A stretch of DNA of 64,000 nucleotides, taken from positions 816,064-880,063 of the forward strand of contig JAKITS010000001.1 of assembly GCA_021648085.1 (NCBI GenBank), in the 5' to 3' direction. The notes below the pieces were generated by a model that saw nothing but the letters and a program-made list of their open reading frames with translations, was not told the origin of the DNA and made no database searches. This document shows, piece by piece, positions 55,577 through 64,000 of this stretch. Positions within the stretch are counted from its first letter, which is position 1. Every line of letters begins with the position of its first letter. This DNA is from Candidatus Magasanikiibacteriota bacterium (GTDB lineage: Bacteria > Patescibacteriota > Patescibacteriia > Magasanikbacterales > UBA922). The translations under genes were made by a program, and so were the position numbers.

Positions 55577-56950
55577 ATGGCAATTCTTAAAAAGAAAAAA
55601 ATGAAACTAAAAAGGCGAAGCCATCATTTTAAATTGGTTAAAAAAATAGACTTAAAAAAACAAAAAGGTAGTAAAAAAAAGAATGTAAATAAAGTATCTG
55701 CAAATAAAAAAATAGTAACAGCAAAAAAAATAAATAAATTGATTGAGAGTGCAAAACACAAACATGTCCAAGATATTATAGTGGAGCTATTCAATGGTTT
55801 GATGGTGTATGCTGCTATCGGTGAGTCTGCCTCAGATTTGCATATAGAACCATGGGAGGAGGAAGCTGTTATTCGTATTCGTGTAGATGGTATTTTATAC
55901 GATAGGTTTAAAGTTAATAAAACTATCTATAGGCATCTTGTAGCACTTTTGAAGATTCTTACAAAAATGAGAACAGACGAGCACAGGTCTCCACAAGATG
56001 GGCGTTTTGAGTTTGATACTCCCACAAACGATGTAGATGTGCGAGCCTCTATTATTCCAACATCAAACGGAGAAAAAGTAGTTTTACGGTTTCTTTCTGG
56101 TAAATCTCATAAATTAACATTAACACAACTCGGATTTTTGAAGCACGATTTAAAAAAAGTTTCCAAAGCAATTCACAAAAATTGGGGAATGATTTTGGCA
56201 ACAGGTCCAACAGGAAGTGGAAAGACAACATCAATTTATGCAATTTTGGAAGAGATAAATAAAAGAGAGGTTAACATAACCACAATTGAAGATCCCGTAG
56301 AGTTTGAAATAGAGGGTGTAAACCAAAGCCAGGTCGACAGAAAGGCAAAGCTAGATTTTGCTACTGGACTTCGCTCTCTTTTGAGGCAAGATCCTGATGT
56401 AATTATGGTTGGTGAGATTCGCGATCACGAAACAGCAAAAATAGCAGTAAATGCAGCTATGACTGGACACAAACTACTCTCAACTCTGCACACAAATAAC
56501 GCCGCTACAACTGTTTTAAGACTTATAGATATGGGAACAGAGCCTTATTTGGTAGCCTCAACACTTATTTGTGCTATTGCTCAGCGGTTGGTTCGCAAGT
56601 TGTGTTCAGAATGTAAAGAAAAAAGAACTTTTACAAAAACTAAGGCTAAAAAAATTCTAAAAAAAGAACATATAGATTTATTATTTGGAAATAAAAAATC
56701 AATCAAAATATCAGCCGCAACTGGGTGCTACGAGTGTGGAAATACAGGATACAAAGGGCGTTTAGGTGTTTATGAGGTTTTGGAGAATACACCTGAAATA
56801 CAGGAGTTAATTTTGAAACATGTAAATAGTACAAAACTACAAGAAATAGCTATTAAAAATGGGATGACAACAATGGCAGAAGATGGATTGAAAAAAGTTG
56901 CTTGCCATGACACCACATTAGAGGAATTTATGAGGGTTATGCAAGAGTAA
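55577..56950 (+). CDS. pilB: type IV pilus / type II secretion assembly ATPase (PilB/GspE family) with Lys-rich N-terminal extension
   Basis: 457 aa; Walker A GPTGSGKTT, Asp box, His box, C-terminal tetra-Cys motif CSECK...CYECGNTG. Confidence 0.9.
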   Translation: MAILKKKKMKLKRRSHHFKLVKKIDLKKQKGSKKKNVNKVSANKKIVTAKKINKLIESAKHKHVQDIIVELFNGLMVYAAIGESASDLHIEPWEEEAVIRIRVDGILYDRFKVNKTIYRHLVALLKILTKMRTDEHRSPQDGRFEFDTPTNDVDVRASIIPTSNGEKVVLRFLSGKSHKLTLTQLGFLKHDLKKVSKAIHKNWGMILATGPTGSGKTTSIYAILEEINKREVNITTIEDPVEFEIEGVNQSQVDRKAKLDFATGLRSLLRQDPDVIMVGEIRDHETAKIAVNAAMTGHKLLSTLHTNNAATTVLRLIDMGTEPYLVASTLICAIAQRLVRKLCSECKEKRTFTKTKAKKILKKEHIDLLFGNKKSIKISAATGCYECGNTGYKGRLGVYEVLENTPEIQELILKHVNSTKLQEIAIKNGMTTMAEDGLKKVACHDTTLEEFMRVMQE

Positions 56951-56961
56951 TATATTTTAAT

Positions 56962-58080
56962 ATGAAGAAGAAGCACCATAAAAAACATAAAATAATAAAA
57001 AAATCTAAAAAAAAGCAGAACCTGCTTTGGAATAGAATATCTGTAAATTTAAAACATACAGAATTGATGCTATTTACAAAATACCTTAATGTTTTGTTGG
57101 GTTCTGGTCTTACTTTAGATGAAGCGTTGGATATTTTGGTGGATCAATCATCTGGTTCTTTAAAAAAGATTTTAAAAAGCCTTCAAGGAAATATAAGAAA
57201 AGGTGGAACTTTATCTGCTGGTTTAGAAAATTATCCTCATATATTTTCTTCTGTATTTATAAATTTAATTAAAGCTGGAGAAAGCTCTGGTACATTGCAA
57301 AATAATTTAGAAAATTTAACGCTTCAAATGGAAAAGGAGTATGAACTTAGAAAAAAGGTTAAAGGTGCACTTGTTTATCCGGTGGTTGTGCTTTCTGTTG
57401 CTGTAATAGTAATGGTTGGAATTATAATCTTTGTAATGCCTGGGCTTGTGGAGCTTTTTTATTCTTTAAAAATAGAATTACCAGCAACAACAAAAGGTTT
57501 GCTTTGGGTATCTGAATTATTTAGAGACGATTATCTTACTGTTATTGCTTTTTCGATAACATTGTTTATTTTTTTATCTGTATTGAAAAAATTAAAATTT
57601 GTAAAACCTATTTTACACTGGATTTTATTGCGTTTACCTGTCGCAGGTAAGCTTTCTAGAGATACAAACTTAGCAAGGTTGACAAGACTAATGGGCACTA
57701 TGCTGAAAAGTGGCATGACTTTAAAAGAAGTCTTGTCTATATCTTCTCAGGTTTTACAAAATGTAAGGTATAAAAAAGTAATGAAAAGAGTTGGGAAAGA
57801 GGTTGCAAGAGGGGGAACTATAAGTGGAGTTCTTGAAAAACATAAAAAAATGTTTCCAATTTTAGCAACAAGGCTTATTAAAGTTGGAGAAGAGACAGGA
57901 ACATTGGATAAAATGTTAGTATATGTTGCCGAATTTTATGAACAAGAAATTGATGGAACAACAAAAAATTTATCTACACTTTTAGAACCTTTTGTTATAC
58001 TTTTGATAGGAGGGGTTGTGGCACTTCTAGCTTCTTCTATTATTACACCAATTTATAAGATAATAGGTTCTGTAGGTTAA
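56962..58080 (+). CDS. pilC: type IV pilus / T2SS platform protein (PilC/GspF family)
   Basis: 372 aa; duplicated GspF domains, 3 TM, LIKAGESSGTL and VGEETGTLD motifs. Confidence 0.85.
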   Translation: MKKKHHKKHKIIKKSKKKQNLLWNRISVNLKHTELMLFTKYLNVLLGSGLTLDEALDILVDQSSGSLKKILKSLQGNIRKGGTLSAGLENYPHIFSSVFINLIKAGESSGTLQNNLENLTLQMEKEYELRKKVKGALVYPVVVLSVAVIVMVGIIIFVMPGLVELFYSLKIELPATTKGLLWVSELFRDDYLTVIAFSITLFIFLSVLKKLKFVKPILHWILLRLPVAGKLSRDTNLARLTRLMGTMLKSGMTLKEVLSISSQVLQNVRYKKVMKRVGKEVARGGTISGVLEKHKKMFPILATRLIKVGEETGTLDKMLVYVAEFYEQEIDGTTKNLSTLLEPFVILLIGGVVALLASSIITPIYKIIGSVG

Positions 58081-58083
58081 TAA

Positions 58084-58572
58084 ATGAAACAAAAAGGTTT
58101 TACAACAATAGAGATTATAGTAGCAATGAGTATATTTTTAATAATTTCCGCTGCTAGTTTTGGTATTTATACAAACTTTCAAAATGTTATTGCAGAAACT
58201 GGATTAAAAGAGGTTGGTTCGGTTATTAATTCTGCTGCAAACAAAGCTAGAAACGGACTTTTTGGCACTTCTTGGGGAATATATTTTCCTTATGATGAAG
58301 TGACTAGAAAAACAGAAACTGCTGTAATTTTTTCTGGCGATAGTTATGGTGCTAGGGACACATCAAAAGATATAAATATAAAATTTACAAAAGCAATAGA
58401 ATTTATAAATATGTCTGTGAGTGGTTCTGGTAGTTCAAGTGGCAATGATCACGAAATTGTATTTTTACCTTTTTCCGCAGATACTAGTCAGTACGGAGAG
58501 ATATTAGTGCAATCTTTTGGTGCAACCTCAACCATTATTGTATCAAAAGATGGGTTTATTACTTGGAAGTAG
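58084..58572 (+). CDS. type IV pilin / pseudopilin (prepilin N-terminal motif GFTTIEIIVAM)
   Basis: 162 aa; class III signal peptide MKQKGFTTIE with Glu+5, hydrophobic alpha1 helix. Confidence 0.7.
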   Translation: MKQKGFTTIEIIVAMSIFLIISAASFGIYTNFQNVIAETGLKEVGSVINSAANKARNGLFGTSWGIYFPYDEVTRKTETAVIFSGDSYGARDTSKDINIKFTKAIEFINMSVSGSGSSSGNDHEIVFLPFSADTSQYGEILVQSFGATSTIIVSKDGFITWK

Positions 58573-58573
58573 T

Positions 58574-59458
58574 ATGATTTTAAAAAATAAAAAAGGATTT
58601 TCAGTTCTAGAGCCTCTTTTAACAATAGGTTTAATGGCTATAATTTTTCTTTCCCTCTCTAGTTTGTTGGTAGTGAGTAGTTTTGATAGTTATAAAAATA
58701 CAGATTTTCAAGAAGGTTTATGGCTTGCACAAGAAGGTGTCTCTGCTATAAAAACTATGACATTTAGTGATTTATTTGAGACTGCGAGTGGTAGTTTACA
58801 TTTTGTGACTAGTTCACAAGAGGTTGGCAGTTGGCAATTACTAGAAAATGGTCCAGAAAATACAGGAAAGTTTACAAGAGAAATTTTGGTAAGTAGTATA
58901 AGACGAAGCGCAAGTTGTGGTATAAGTGAAAATCAAGCAGATACAATAGATCTGGATACTTTTAAAATAGAAAGTAATGTGACTTGGCAAGACACAAATG
59001 GAGAAATGCGAGATGTTTCTCTTGAAAGTTTTAGAACAAATTGGCAAAACCCAAGTGGAAGCTGTTTTGTGGTGAATGATTCTTGTTTGTCTGTAGATAT
59101 TTCATCGGCTTCTTGGTCTGGAGGAAAACAGTTGAGAGATGTGTACTTTACAAATATATGTGAAGACGATTTTGATATTGATAGTATAATTTTTACTTGG
59201 GATTATAATACAGAAATAACACAAGTATTTTTGGATAATCACAAAATTTGGTCTAGCTCTGGCCCAGGCTCTCCTTCCGGCTATCAAACAAGTGGTACAG
59301 AGCTTTTTGTACATCATGCAGAGGTTGATGGTGAAGATACAGTAGAGCTACATAAAACTCAATTTACACAAAATATGGAAGGTTCTACTATCTCAATAAC
59401 TGTTTATTTAGAAGATGGTACTTCTGTGAGTACTGGAATTTTTACTCCTTCTTATTAG
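58574..59458 (+). CDS. pilin-like protein (prepilin-like N-terminus KGFSVLEPLL)
   Basis: start set at ATG 58574 right after previous stop; N-terminal GFSVLE + hydrophobic helix; large Ser/Thr-rich globular part. Confidence 0.55.
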   Translation: MILKNKKGFSVLEPLLTIGLMAIIFLSLSSLLVVSSFDSYKNTDFQEGLWLAQEGVSAIKTMTFSDLFETASGSLHFVTSSQEVGSWQLLENGPENTGKFTREILVSSIRRSASCGISENQADTIDLDTFKIESNVTWQDTNGEMRDVSLESFRTNWQNPSGSCFVVNDSCLSVDISSASWSGGKQLRDVYFTNICEDDFDIDSIIFTWDYNTEITQVFLDNHKIWSSSGPGSPSGYQTSGTELFVHHAEVDGEDTVELHKTQFTQNMEGSTISITVYLEDGTSVSTGIFTPSY

Positions 59459-59459
59459 T

Positions 59460-60020
59460 ATGAGAAAGCAAAACGGAATTACACTCGTGGGAACCCTTGT
59501 TTACATAGCTTTACTGGCTATAATTTTACCTGCTTTAGTTATGTTTTTTTTGGGAACTACTGCAAATTATTCAAAATTAGACACAAAATCTAGAATAATA
59601 AATTCTGCTTCTGTAATTTTCTCCAGAGTTCATTATGAGTTTAATAATGCAACAGCTTTTAGTATAACAAGCTCTACTTTGGGAGTGGATGAGAGTAGAT
59701 TATTTTTTCAAAATAAAAATGGAAATAGTTTTATTTTGGAAAGTGTCTCAACAACAGCATTATTTGCAGATACACAGCAAAATATAAACAGATTGCGTCT
59801 TGTAAACCAAAGCAGTAGCACACAAAGTTGGCTAACAGATCCAGATTTAAATATAGATAAGTGGAACATACACGCAGTTAGAGATAGTGTTGGCACACTA
59901 ACAGGGTTGCGCGTAGAATTGAAAATAGAAGGTCCTACGGTTTCAGAAGAAGGTTTTAATTCAAATAGTTTTAATGTTTCAACTACAATAAATTTTAATT
60001 CTAGTATTTTAGAAATTTAG
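59460..60020 (+). CDS. pilin-like / minor pseudopilin
   Basis: 186 aa; N-term MRKQNGITLVGTLVYIALLAIIL hydrophobic prepilin-like helix. Confidence 0.45.
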   Translation: MRKQNGITLVGTLVYIALLAIILPALVMFFLGTTANYSKLDTKSRIINSASVIFSRVHYEFNNATAFSITSSTLGVDESRLFFQNKNGNSFILESVSTTALFADTQQNINRLRLVNQSSSTQSWLTDPDLNIDKWNIHAVRDSVGTLTGLRVELKIEGPTVSEEGFNSNSFNVSTTINFNSSILEI

Positions 60021-60021
60021 T

Positions 60022-60408
60022 ATGACTATAATAAAAAATGATAAAGGAGTTGTAATGATACTTCTTTTGGTTGTTATAGGCATTACTTCGTTTATTTTTT
60101 TCTTTGGTTTTGCCAGAACTAGTCTTATGACTGTTTTGGATTTAGATGAGCAAATTATAGCAGTACAAACGAAAGAAAGATTAACTGCTTGTGTGGACGA
60201 GGTTTTAATAAGATTGCAAAACGATAGTACATTTAACACAACTACAATAAATATGGTATCATATAATTGTGGAGTAAATATATCTGGAAATGTATCAAAT
60301 ACTACTGTAAATGTATCTACAACTTACAAAAACATAGAAAGGGGGATTGAGCTGAATTTAACATTAGATCCTGTTGTAATCCAAAGCTTAGAAGAGAGGC
60401 TAAATTAG
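60022..60408 (+). CDS. pilin-like / minor pseudopilin
   Basis: 128 aa; N-terminal hydrophobic helix; Asn/Thr-rich; last gene of operon, terminator 60487-60517. Confidence 0.4.
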   Translation: MTIIKNDKGVVMILLLVVIGITSFIFFFGFARTSLMTVLDLDEQIIAVQTKERLTACVDEVLIRLQNDSTFNTTTINMVSYNCGVNISGNVSNTTVNVSTTYKNIERGIELNLTLDPVVIQSLEERLN

Positions 60409-60532
60409 AACTTTTTAGAGTAATAGTTGCCAAACTGTAAAAGGTGAACTGTATATTCTTAGAAGGAATTTCGCTTTTTAGAGCGTAAAAAAATCGTGGG
60501 ATAACCGCGATTTTTTTATTGGTAATATCTTG

Positions 60533-62689
60533 TTATTTTGAAGGTATCTCTAATATAAAAGTGGCACCTTTCCTTTTTTTTGTTTTAGCTTTGCACCACA
60601 GCTGACCTTTATGTTTTTTTGCAAATTTACGACTTATAAATAAATCAACACCTAACCCTTCTGGTTTTATTTTTTTAATTTCATTTCCTCTAAAGAATTT
60701 TTCAAAAATTAATTCTTTGTTTTTTGTAGATACTCCAACACCTTCGTCTTCCACTGAAACAGTAAATTTGTCTGTCCGAACATTTAATGATGGATGTATG
60801 ATAATAGTACTTTTTTTTGGGCTATAATCTACAGCATTGGAAATGAGTGTTTCTAGAATTTGTTGTATTTTTTTTGTATCACAGTTTATGGTAATTTCTT
60901 TTTGACTAGATTTTATTTTAATTTTTATACCTTTTTTCTCTATGTCTTCTTCTACTTTTTCTAATGCTGGTGTCAGTAGATTTTTAAAGAAATCATTTGG
61001 ATCTTTTTTGATAGCTACTTTTTTTTCTGATATTTCGAGTGATGTAAAAAGTGAATTTAAACCATTATTTAAAGATTTTAGTTTGTAGTGAATTCCACTT
61101 GTGTGAGAGCTGATTTTTTTACTTATTTTTCCAACATCTCCATCTAATAAAATTTCCAAATCCCAAAGAGCCGAAGAAAGCGGTGTACGAAGGTGAAGAG
61201 ACAAAACATTTATAAATTCAGTTTTAATTTTATCTGTTTCTTGAAGTTTTCTCAAGGCTTCTGAGTGTTCAATTGGGTAAACAACTTCTTTTGAAATCTG
61301 GTCTATTAGTCGGATATCTTTATCATAAAAAGGATCATCAGACTTCTTTTTTCCTATAATTAATATAGCGATCAATTTTTTGTCTTTGTGAGAATAAATA
61401 GGGGAAATAACTTCAAACTTAGACTTATTCATAGCTTTTTTAAAGTGAATAAGTTTTTTTCTTTGTCCATTTGTAAAAATACGAGTATGGCTTACTAAAT
61501 AGTCCAGATGGTCTTTAAAAATAACACTTGTATTTTTGTCTATAAAAGCCTCTTTGTTTTTGTGGTCTGATATATACTCTACTAAGTCCTTATGTTTTTC
61601 AATTTTTATTTTATTTTTATCTCCAAAAACTTTTGCAGTATGAAATTTCTTGTAAACAGCACTCCCAAGTATAAAGGTGACATCATCTGTTTGGAGTTTG
61701 TCTTTAATTTTTTGTGCAGTATCTGTAAGTAAGTTTTTCAAATTGTGTTTTGATATTAGAAGATTATTAAATTCTTCTAGTGCAGAGCGTAAGTGGTATT
61801 GTCTTTTGAAAAATATCTTGTTTGTAATCCTCTCTAAAGAGTTTTTGAAAGGTGTAAAACCAATTGTAATTATAAAAGCTGCCAAAACAAGTGCATAAGT
61901 TTGCCCAATAAACTCTCCGGCAAAAAGCATGCTTGCAATAAATAGTGTGGCTACAACTACAAAAGTTGCAGAAAATATAAAACCTCTTTTTATAATAACC
62001 TCTATATCCAAAAATCTATGTTTTACAATAGCATAACCAATGATTAAAAGCATTGGGAAAGAGAATAAAGGTCCTATATTATTATAGTGAAAATTATTAA
62101 ATAAAATCGGTAAAAATAGATTTGTTATAAGTATTGGTATTACCAATATGGAAAAACCTATTGTTGTATATGCTAGTTTAATTTTTTCTATTTTTTTAGA
62201 ATTTATAACTTTTATAATTAAAATTATAAGAGTTATTATAATAATTGTTGGGTAATAAAAAGTAAAAAAATTAATTAAAGGCCCCAAGGTTCCATTTATG
62301 GATCCATTAATAATAATAACACTATTTGTAATTAATAGGGGTGTTAATGTTAAAATAAATAAAACTAAACTTACAATAATATAAAATAAATTAAATAATT
62401 TATTTTTTGGTTTTGTTTTTGGATATATTAAAGAAAAATATAAAAAAACATTAACTAAAATTAAAGAAAAAGAAAAAGCGAGCCTACTCCACCAAAGTTG
62501 AAGTGTAGGCCCGCCTATTGCAGTAATTGTAAAAAAAAGAGAAATATTCCAAAACGCTAAACTAAAAGCATAAGTTGCAAATAGTTTATTTAAAATATTT
62601 TTTTTATTATTAAATAGTATTTTTAAACCTAATAATATATTTAAAGAAAAAACAATTAAATATAAAATTGAAAATGAATTATAAATCAT
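60533..62689 (-). CDS. sensor histidine kinase with N-terminal 7-8 TM sensor domain
   Basis: 718 aa; polytopic N-half, H-box LSLHLRTPLSS, HATPase_c motifs (N box LISNAVDYS, G boxes DEGVGV, GLGVDL). Confidence 0.8.
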   Translation of the reverse strand: MIYNSFSILYLIVFSLNILLGLKILFNNKKNILNKLFATYAFSLAFWNISLFFTITAIGGPTLQLWWSRLAFSFSLILVNVFLYFSLIYPKTKPKNKLFNLFYIIVSLVLFILTLTPLLITNSVIIINGSINGTLGPLINFFTFYYPTIIIITLIILIIKVINSKKIEKIKLAYTTIGFSILVIPILITNLFLPILFNNFHYNNIGPLFSFPMLLIIGYAIVKHRFLDIEVIIKRGFIFSATFVVVATLFIASMLFAGEFIGQTYALVLAAFIITIGFTPFKNSLERITNKIFFKRQYHLRSALEEFNNLLISKHNLKNLLTDTAQKIKDKLQTDDVTFILGSAVYKKFHTAKVFGDKNKIKIEKHKDLVEYISDHKNKEAFIDKNTSVIFKDHLDYLVSHTRIFTNGQRKKLIHFKKAMNKSKFEVISPIYSHKDKKLIAILIIGKKKSDDPFYDKDIRLIDQISKEVVYPIEHSEALRKLQETDKIKTEFINVLSLHLRTPLSSALWDLEILLDGDVGKISKKISSHTSGIHYKLKSLNNGLNSLFTSLEISEKKVAIKKDPNDFFKNLLTPALEKVEEDIEKKGIKIKIKSSQKEITINCDTKKIQQILETLISNAVDYSPKKSTIIIHPSLNVRTDKFTVSVEDEGVGVSTKNKELIFEKFFRGNEIKKIKPEGLGVDLFISRKFAKKHKGQLWCKAKTKKRKGATFILEIPSK

Positions 62690-63983
62690 AATTTAAATTA
62701 AAATATATTTTATCTTTAAAAAAAATACTACCAGGAGCAGAAAATGTACCGTGATATTCTTTATATGATTCCCAAATTTTAATATTACAAGTTTTAGATA
62801 TTTCTAACCAATATTTTTTTTGACAAACAGCTATCCAATATTTTGTATAGATTTTCTTTTTTGTGGTTATTAATGAAAATGCTGTTATTAAAATACCTAA
62901 ATTTGTAGTTCTTTTTATTTTTGCGACTGACAATCTAGATAATTCCAGTGTTTTCATTCTTGCTATTTCTTGAAATTTTGGTAATTCAAACTCCTCTTCC
63001 AATAAAAATCCTCTTGGAGTATTTGGAATTAGCCTAATACACCCTATTATACCACAATTATTCTTTGCAAAAAAATGATAAGAATATTGATCAAACCAGT
63101 CTATTTCTATTTTGTCTGGATAATCTTTTGGGTCTAAACTTTTTATTTCTTCACAATATACTTCATATCTTAATTTTTGGGTTTCAATTATTTCTTCTGG
63201 AGTTTGTGCTCTACGAATAAGAATTTCTTCCCCACCTTTTGTAATTATTTGACCCGTGTCTTTTTGGCAACTAAATAAAATACAAGTATCACCATACAAA
63301 ACTTCAAAATTTAAAATTATAAAACCTACATTTTTAAGAATTTCTTCTAGTTTTTTAGGTTCAATAAAGTGTACTGTACTTCCTTTTTTTGCAGCTTTTG
63401 CAATAACTAAGTTTATCATCATAAGTAAGACTGACAAAGGAAAAATACAAAAAAATAATAGTCCTGCTTTCCAATCTCTCTCTTTTTTAATCAATTGTAA
63501 ATGTTCATTTAGAATATTTTGTGGTTTTGGATTAAAAGGATTAACTAATACTAAAATACCACCGTCTTCTAATTTTTTATACCAATTTTCTATGACTTCT
63601 TCTGGATTTTTTGTTGTATAAAGCGAGTTTGAAGATATTATGCGGTCAAAAGATCTTTTATTTTTCGCTTCATTTTCAGTTCTTTTTTTTTCAAAATTTA
63701 CATTACTAAATTTTTTCAATTTTCTCCTTGCTTTTCCAAGCATTATAGAAGAGATATCGATTCCAAAAATTTTTATATTATAAGGTAAATCCTTCGAAGA
63801 AACCACTTCTTTTATTGAGTTTCCTGTTCCACATCCAGAATCTAAAATATCTAAGTGTGGAATAAGTCTCAACTCTTCCAAAATTCTCTTTTGTAAATAT
63901 TTGTAAGGTTTTAAAAATCTCACAATATCATACAAAATTGCATAGAATTGCCAAAAGAACTTTTTCATTACTTTTTCCTCCAA
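62679..63983 (-). CDS. fusion protein: class I SAM-dependent methyltransferase + TM segment + Acetyltransf_5-like N-acyl amino acid synthase (OlsB/FeeM/LuxI-fold GNAT) domain
   Basis: 434 aa; MTase motif I ILDSGCGTGN plus post-I acidic and motif II; central hydrophobic helix; C-term RRAQTPEEIIETQKLRYEVYCEEI...DWFDQYSYHFF...IIGCIRLIP matches Acetyltransf_5 signature; overlaps HK start by 11 nt. Confidence 0.55.
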   Translation of the reverse strand: MEEKVMKKFFWQFYAILYDIVRFLKPYKYLQKRILEELRLIPHLDILDSGCGTGNSIKEVVSSKDLPYNIKIFGIDISSIMLGKARRKLKKFSNVNFEKKRTENEAKNKRSFDRIISSNSLYTTKNPEEVIENWYKKLEDGGILVLVNPFNPKPQNILNEHLQLIKKERDWKAGLLFFCIFPLSVLLMMINLVIAKAAKKGSTVHFIEPKKLEEILKNVGFIILNFEVLYGDTCILFSCQKDTGQIITKGGEEILIRRAQTPEEIIETQKLRYEVYCEEIKSLDPKDYPDKIEIDWFDQYSYHFFAKNNCGIIGCIRLIPNTPRGFLLEEEFELPKFQEIARMKTLELSRLSVAKIKRTTNLGILITAFSLITTKKKIYTKYWIAVCQKKYWLEISKTCNIKIWESYKEYHGTFSAPGSIFFKDKIYFNLNYDL

Positions 63984-64000
63984 ATTACCCCCACGTTAAT

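Follow-up and report, generated by a model that had tools for sequence, protein, structure and literature searches.

The window, which is the whole 64-kb stretch of DNA analysed here, contains two overlapping genes that form one operon, with the gene of a putative signal synthase first and that of a sensor kinase second (Table 1). A CPR bacterium, an organism with a tiny genome, thus carries a predicted lipid-signal synthase directly before a GPCR-like sensor kinase. There is about an even chance that the two proteins are the synthase of a methylated N-acyl amino-acid signal and its membrane receptor, a pair comparable to PhcB/PhcS and CqsA/CqsS. Synthase and sensor are found paired again in many phyla, and this suggests a cell-signalling cassette that is largely undescribed; LuxI-homologue/kinase pairs of CPR have been partly known since 2020. 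The domain make-up, the operon structure, the cross-phylum association of methyltransferase (MT), acyl enzyme and 7TM-GAF sensor and the predicted folds were computed here. They confirm the observation made in a first-pass annotation of this DNA and, taken overall, support its interpretation.

Table 1. Coordinates of the operon, its encoded domains and neighbouring features in the window.
Feature	Position	Strand	Basis
Fusion gene (MT + N-acyltransferase), 429 aa	62679..63968	(-)	ORF list, start/SD reading, Pfam, AlphaFold model
MT domain, residues 1-235	63264..63968	(-)	Pfam, invariant columns of two alignments, PDB profile search
Hydrophobic helix, residues 166-194	63387..63473	(-)	Hydropathy, model secondary structure, subfamily conservation
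N-acyltransferase domain, residues about 247-416 (LuxI/FeeM/Acetyltransf_5 superfamily)	62721..63230	(-)	Pfam, family profile
GGAGG ribosome-binding site, 8 nt 5' of ATG 63968	63977..63981	(-)	Sequence reading
Sensor histidine kinase gene, 718 aa	60533..62689	(-)	ORF list, Pfam, overlap reading
HisKA_7TM sensor domain, residues 1-229	62003..62689	(-)	Pfam, predicted fold
Two long hydrophobic helices, residues 228-293	61811..62008	(-)	Hydropathy, model
GAF domain, residues about 300-470	61280..61792	(-)	Foldseek; Pfam GAF in relatives
Atypical H-box S497-L498-H499-L-R-T-P-L	61178..61201	(-)	Alignment of 16 kinases
HATPase_c catalytic domain, residues 604-717	60539..60880	(-)	Pfam, box reading
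Hairpin ATCGTGG-GATAA-CCGCGAT with A7 + T7 flanks	60487..60518	(.)	Sequence reading
Convergent type IV pilus-like operon	55577..60408	(+)	Pfam T2SSE, T2SSF, N_methyl

The fusion gene had been described as running to the window edge. Instead, an in-frame TAA at 63996-63998 shuts its frame upstream, and the promoter, as foreseen, is the sole part of the operon beyond the window. The ORF finder called 62679..63983 on the minus strand, but its TTG at 63983 is probably too early and ATG 63968, with GGAGG upstream, is probably the start, which makes the fusion protein 429 aa long in place of the 434 reported before. The protein read from this ATG is identical to the deposited P0001 of a Candidatus Magasanikbacteria MAG, and the kinase is identical to P0020. 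Both ORFs lie where they had been placed, and since the kinase starts at ATG 62689, among the final codons of the fusion gene, 11 nt are common to both genes, which suggests translational coupling. The hairpin beyond the kinase gene, which was found by direct reading and is absent from the output of the automatic terminator scan, is likely a bidirectional terminator that closes the operon; it separates the kinase gene from the convergent pilus operon. The latter encodes a PilB-type ATPase, a PilC-type platform and four pilin-like proteins (Pfam); it is a neighbour outside the two-gene operon and a possible regulatory target, and pilus genes also flank the cassette at loci L003, L004/L005, L018, L031 and L087. 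No receiver domain was found within the 64-kb window, nor in the 10 kb upstream of L002, the closest syntenic relative, where three tRNAs and transporters are located. Given this upstream region, it is unlikely that a response regulator is encoded close beyond the window edge, as the first-pass annotation had considered.

Both domains that had been read from the translation of the fusion protein, a class I SAM methyltransferase and an Acetyltransf_5-type domain, were matched by Pfam. The N-terminal part matches Methyltransf_31 (1.2e-17, residues 44-157) and Methyltransf_23 (residues 33-221), its motif I is ILDSGCGTGN, and residues W6, Y9, Y13, D14, Y22, D43, C46-N50, D108, Y117, N186, I189 and Y225 are invariant in the alignments. 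The PDB profile and fold matches of the MT are confined to the Rossmann core and mix N-, O- and C-methyltransferases that act on small molecules, and they point to no particular methylation site or amino-acid acceptor. The hydrophobic segment noted earlier is present (Kyte-Doolittle 19-residue maximum 2.6), though not as a piece between the two domains. It is inserted into the MT fold after strand 5, ahead of the last helix-strand-strand unit (Pfam, AlphaFold model); the Methyltransf_23 match runs across it, and strands 217-224 and 229-235 follow it in the confident model of the two-domain protein (pLDDT 89.3, pTM 0.88). A transmembrane linker was thereby ruled out. Two of the invariant residues, N186 and I189, lie in this helix, and a segment with a Kyte-Doolittle value of at least 1.6 is found in 59 of the 87 stand-alone methyltransferases of the subfamily, at a median position of 170. 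The role proposed for the helix is that of a membrane-docking element or a lid for the lipid substrate.

In the C-terminal part, Acetyltransf_5 (PF13444) is matched significantly at residues 271-359 (1.9e-14, 54.6 bits against a cut-off of 22.4), within the stretch of about 270-400 to which it had been assigned, whereas the FeeM model stays under its Pfam cut-off (22.9 against 27 bits). The conserved residues are R267, Y271, E274, E288, D290, D293, R312, E342 and R345. The family profile aligns with entire AHL synthases (RpaI 4e-17, BjaI 9e-17, LasI 4e-13) and reaches FeeM at 0.27 only, so that AHL synthases are its nearest PDB matches by a wide margin. Searched one by one, 15 of the 16 family members match FeeM, 15 match Acetyltransf_5 and 9 match Autoind_synth. 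The top NCBIfam match of the domain is TIGR03694 (1e-16), which at 61 bits falls short of its cut-off of 112, and the OlsB models, whose cut-offs are 320-350, reach 24-27 bits. Across 15-16 relatives, there is no variation in the SAM motifs or in the charged residues that are also found in LuxI-type synthases, and both domains look catalytically complete.

These matches bear on the two hypotheses that had been put forward, a small N-acyl (possibly N-methylated) signal with its cognate sensor and an ornithine-lipid-like pathway. Neither is proven, and the comparative data favour the former. The latter, as membrane-lipid remodelling coupled to envelope sensing, is the main rival and is possible, though clearly less probable. 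Here OlsB-like N-acylation followed by OlsG/PmtA-like N-methylation would yield an aminolipid head group that stays in the membrane, and the kinase would sense the state or composition of the bilayer and tune expression, a homeostatic loop like des-desKR. OlsB does belong to the Acetyltransf_5 family, its models do match weakly, and phosphoethanolamine/phosphatidylethanolamine N-methyltransferases and cyclopropane-fatty-acid synthases are among the top MT matches by sequence and fold. The invariant Tyr-rich active site with its (near-)invariant D14 probably resembles that of amine N-methyltransferases, the hydrophobic helix suits membrane docking, and polytopic kinases such as DesK can sense the bilayer. 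Nevertheless, OlsB falls far below its cut-offs, the family profile is far nearer to AHL synthases than to any other PDB entry, and the PlsC/OlsA-type second acyltransferase required for a two-chain lipid was found in none of the 11 Pfam-annotated loci. In addition, the acyltransferase of other cassettes is missing or gives way to a ketoacyl synthase or a PaaK-like ligase; diversifying signal chemistry therefore fits better than one conserved membrane lipid.

A weak match to CheR (residues 26-87, E 8e-5, 22.6 bits against a Pfam cut-off of 27 bits) raises another alternative, in which CheR-like receptor methylation is combined with an acyltransferase that lipidates a protein such as pilin, with no diffusible small molecule. 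The frequent proximity of pilin genes would suit this, as would the fact that no other pair in the cassette is as constant as MT and sensor. It is nonetheless very improbable: the CheR match is limited to the SAM-binding motif, every stronger MT match is a small-molecule or lipid methyltransferase, and the acyltransferase profile runs end-to-end with AHL synthases. Moreover, the ketoacyl synthases, PaaK-like ligases and ThiF-like adenylating enzymes among the partners at relatives' loci indicate small-molecule assembly.

The kinase combines a HisKA_7TM domain (43.3 bits against a Pfam cut-off of 28.6), a GAF domain and a kinase core with HATPase_c (71 bits, Pfam), whose N, G1, F and G2 boxes can all be read in the translation. 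The 7TM bundle has a predicted GPCR-like fold, a likeness at the level of topology that says nothing on ligand binding, with a beta-hairpin in the helix 4-5 loop (residues 120-135). Two long hydrophobic helices, 228-261 and 263-293, join the bundle to the cytoplasmic part (hydropathy, model); the protein is polytopic as had been stated, but the 7-8 transmembrane segments counted before become seven Pfam-domain helices plus these two. The GAF region is too divergent for Pfam detection in the window kinase, whereas Foldseek matches it to GAF domains and relatives have a Pfam GAF match at the equivalent position. In the alignment of 16 kinases, Leu occupies the canonical phospho-acceptor position of the H-box and His is shifted by one residue. 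The window kinase shares the variant SLHLRTPL with P0021 and P0022; every other relative has SH[EQG]L[RQ]TPL, and Pfam HisKA gives the window kinase 12.5 bits only. Because of this atypical H-box and of the lack of a receiver domain nearby, a canonical phosphorelay in the window clade stays putative. A relationship of the sensor to LuxN was considered and dropped, because the LuxN model (16-19 bits against a cut-off of 1550) matched the window protein alone of 19 sensors. The PrsK model likewise matched the 7TM region in one of the 19 (2.5e-4).

Comparison of loci revealed that the association spans at least eight phylum-level groups, with synthase genes fused, split or reversed. The kinase and the MT/acyltransferase genes are kept together across phyla down to 26-37% identity, so the kinase does not belong to an unrelated neighbourhood, a point on which the earlier interpretation depended. 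The fused order is seen in the window and L001-L008, two adjacent genes in L010, L012, L017, L019, L020, L021, L034, L035 and L040, and reverse-order fusions in L032, L036, L039, P0112 and P0138; together the fusions and adjacent pairs provide Rosetta-stone evidence that links MT with acyltransferase. A homologous kinase follows every fusion gene that has sufficient flanking DNA. A HisKA_7TM protein encoded on the same strand, no more than 3.5 kb downstream, is found at 26 of the 39 loci with a strong MT (score of at least 100 bits) but at none of the 41 with a weaker one (Fisher p = 1e-11). Chance adjacency of unrelated neighbours, with an overlap due to tight packing, was worth considering in dense CPR genomes, where short gene overlaps are common; these counts and the spread over phyla refute it and leave it a negligible probability.

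Judging by the relatives, the constant partner is the 7TM-GAF sensor module rather than the kinase, while output domains and synthase chemistry vary, a pattern that also speaks for a signal with its cognate sensor over the ornithine-lipid-like pathway. The outputs are HisKA/HATPase, GAF-HD-GYP or GGDEF+HD-GYP, and the middle gene is LuxI/FeeM-like, a T_hemolysin GNAT, a FabF-like ketoacyl synthase, a PaaK-like ligase or missing. In the reciprocal test, which began with five distant homologues of the sensor, genes for the biosynthesis of acyl compounds or small molecules lay directly upstream in four; MT, which is thus not universal, was missing at two of the five loci. Sensor domains group with those of the same cassette type in other phyla: Desulfovibrionaceae L013 and Bacillota L015, for instance, share 58% identity in this domain. 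The cassette therefore moves as a unit. Receiver-only proteins accompany it in L003-L006, L030 and L036, and several loci have extra sensors, with periplasmic-binding proteins and dCache/PAS kinases.

The extra sensors could supply other cues for a regulated secondary-metabolite cassette, in which a surfactant, an antimicrobial or a host-directed N-acyl amide like those of gut commensals would be secreted, and the 7TM-GAF sensor would detect a host-membrane component or environmental signal and control production only. FeeM-type N-acyl amino-acid synthases produce bioactive or surfactant compounds, and CPR bacteria are episymbionts that could target their hosts. N-acyl alanine methyl esters are antialgal and antibacterial and inactive in AHL signalling (PMC11580390). 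This possibility is rather unlikely. The sensor gene follows the synthase genes within one transcription unit, so the sensor would be co-produced with the enzyme and not stand above it in a regulatory hierarchy. Its grouping by synthase type is expected of ligand-receptor co-evolution and less of a generic regulator, and beyond the 7TM bundle and a short hairpin it has no extracytoplasmic ligand-binding domain.

For the preferred reading, a methylated N-acyl amino-acid signal and its receptor, we infer the substrates, product, ligand-receptor relation and regulatory output as follows. The LuxI/FeeM-fold domain would move a fatty acyl from acyl-ACP or acyl-CoA onto the amino group of an amino acid, and the SAM methyltransferase, docked on the membrane or lipid substrate by its lid helix, would methylate the acylated product or its precursor. 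The result would be a hydrophobic N-acyl amino-acid derivative, uncharged or charge-altered, for example a methyl ester or N-methyl form. It may enter the membrane and be bound by the 7TM bundle, from which the signal would pass through the two linker helices and the GAF domain to the kinase core. The output would probably reach receiver proteins encoded elsewhere, and in CPR bacteria it may control type IV pili. Synteny alone fits both an enzyme product that is the ligand and a sensor that regulates the enzyme, of which the des-desKR arrangement is an example. Fatty-acid synthesis is commonly missing in CPR bacteria, and the supply of acyl donor therefore counts against this reading.

Among known systems, TIGR03694 (PEP-CTERM/exosortase-associated acyltransferase) and FeeM belong to the same superfamily as the C-terminal domain, and TIGR03694 proteins are linked to a polytopic GAF-containing kinase named PrsK. 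However, both models stay under their cut-offs on the window protein, the PrsK model matches only the single sensor mentioned, those systems are without methyltransferase, and no exosortase gene was seen here. OlsB/OlsG likewise join Acetyltransf_5-family N-acylation with SAM-dependent methylation, but differ in the points given above; no fusion of the two and no pairing with a sensor is known. With LuxI-type synthases (RpaI, BjaI, TofI, LasI, EsaI), the alignment of the profile extends along the full length of the enzyme (E 4e-17 to 7e-7), and the Arg/Asp/Asp/Arg/Glu/Arg set corresponds to R267, D290, D293, R312, E342 and R345. Unlike nine of the 16 family members, the window protein itself has no Autoind_synth match (Pfam). 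The Trp that helps to bind SAM in LuxI enzymes is apparently retained in the split Eubacteriales/Coriobacteriia proteins, whereas the fused clade of CPR seems to have Ser or Leu in its place. A lactone product would give little sense to an obligatory methyltransferase partner, and a 7TM protein of the membrane takes the place of LuxR as partner receptor.

In phcBSR, a methyltransferase makes the fatty-acid methyl ester 3-OH-MAME/PAME, which a membrane kinase senses, with receiver-only regulators (PMC11960443, PMC8578825). PhcB/PhcS were compared with the window MT and HisKA_7TM at the level of published descriptions; in these terms, a SAM methyltransferase gene directly upstream of a membrane sensor kinase gene in a single operon is similar, as are the receiver-only proteins of the six loci named, and a methylated fatty-acyl signal sensed by the kinase is proposed for the window cassette. 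PhcB has no reported LuxI/FeeM-fold domain. In the window clade, the H-box is atypical and no receiver gene adjoins the cassette. In CqsA/CqsS, LqsA/LqsS and LuxM/LuxN, a synthase gene also adjoins that of a polytopic sensor kinase, whose transmembrane domain binds a hydrophobic acyl-chain signal, as the window sensor may, although those synthases are of other families. A survey of CPR found 36 LuxI homologues, of which 18 adjoined a sensory kinase and were proposed as complete quorum-sensing candidates; one such kinase matched the CqsS N-terminal sensor profile (Bernard et al. 2020, mSystems, PMC7567580). It makes no mention of a methyltransferase, the HisKA_7TM-GAF module, alternative outputs or synthases, or spread beyond CPR, and the fusion would escape it because 75% mutual coverage was demanded. 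The surveyed LuxI/kinase pairs are very probably split versions of the cassette described here.

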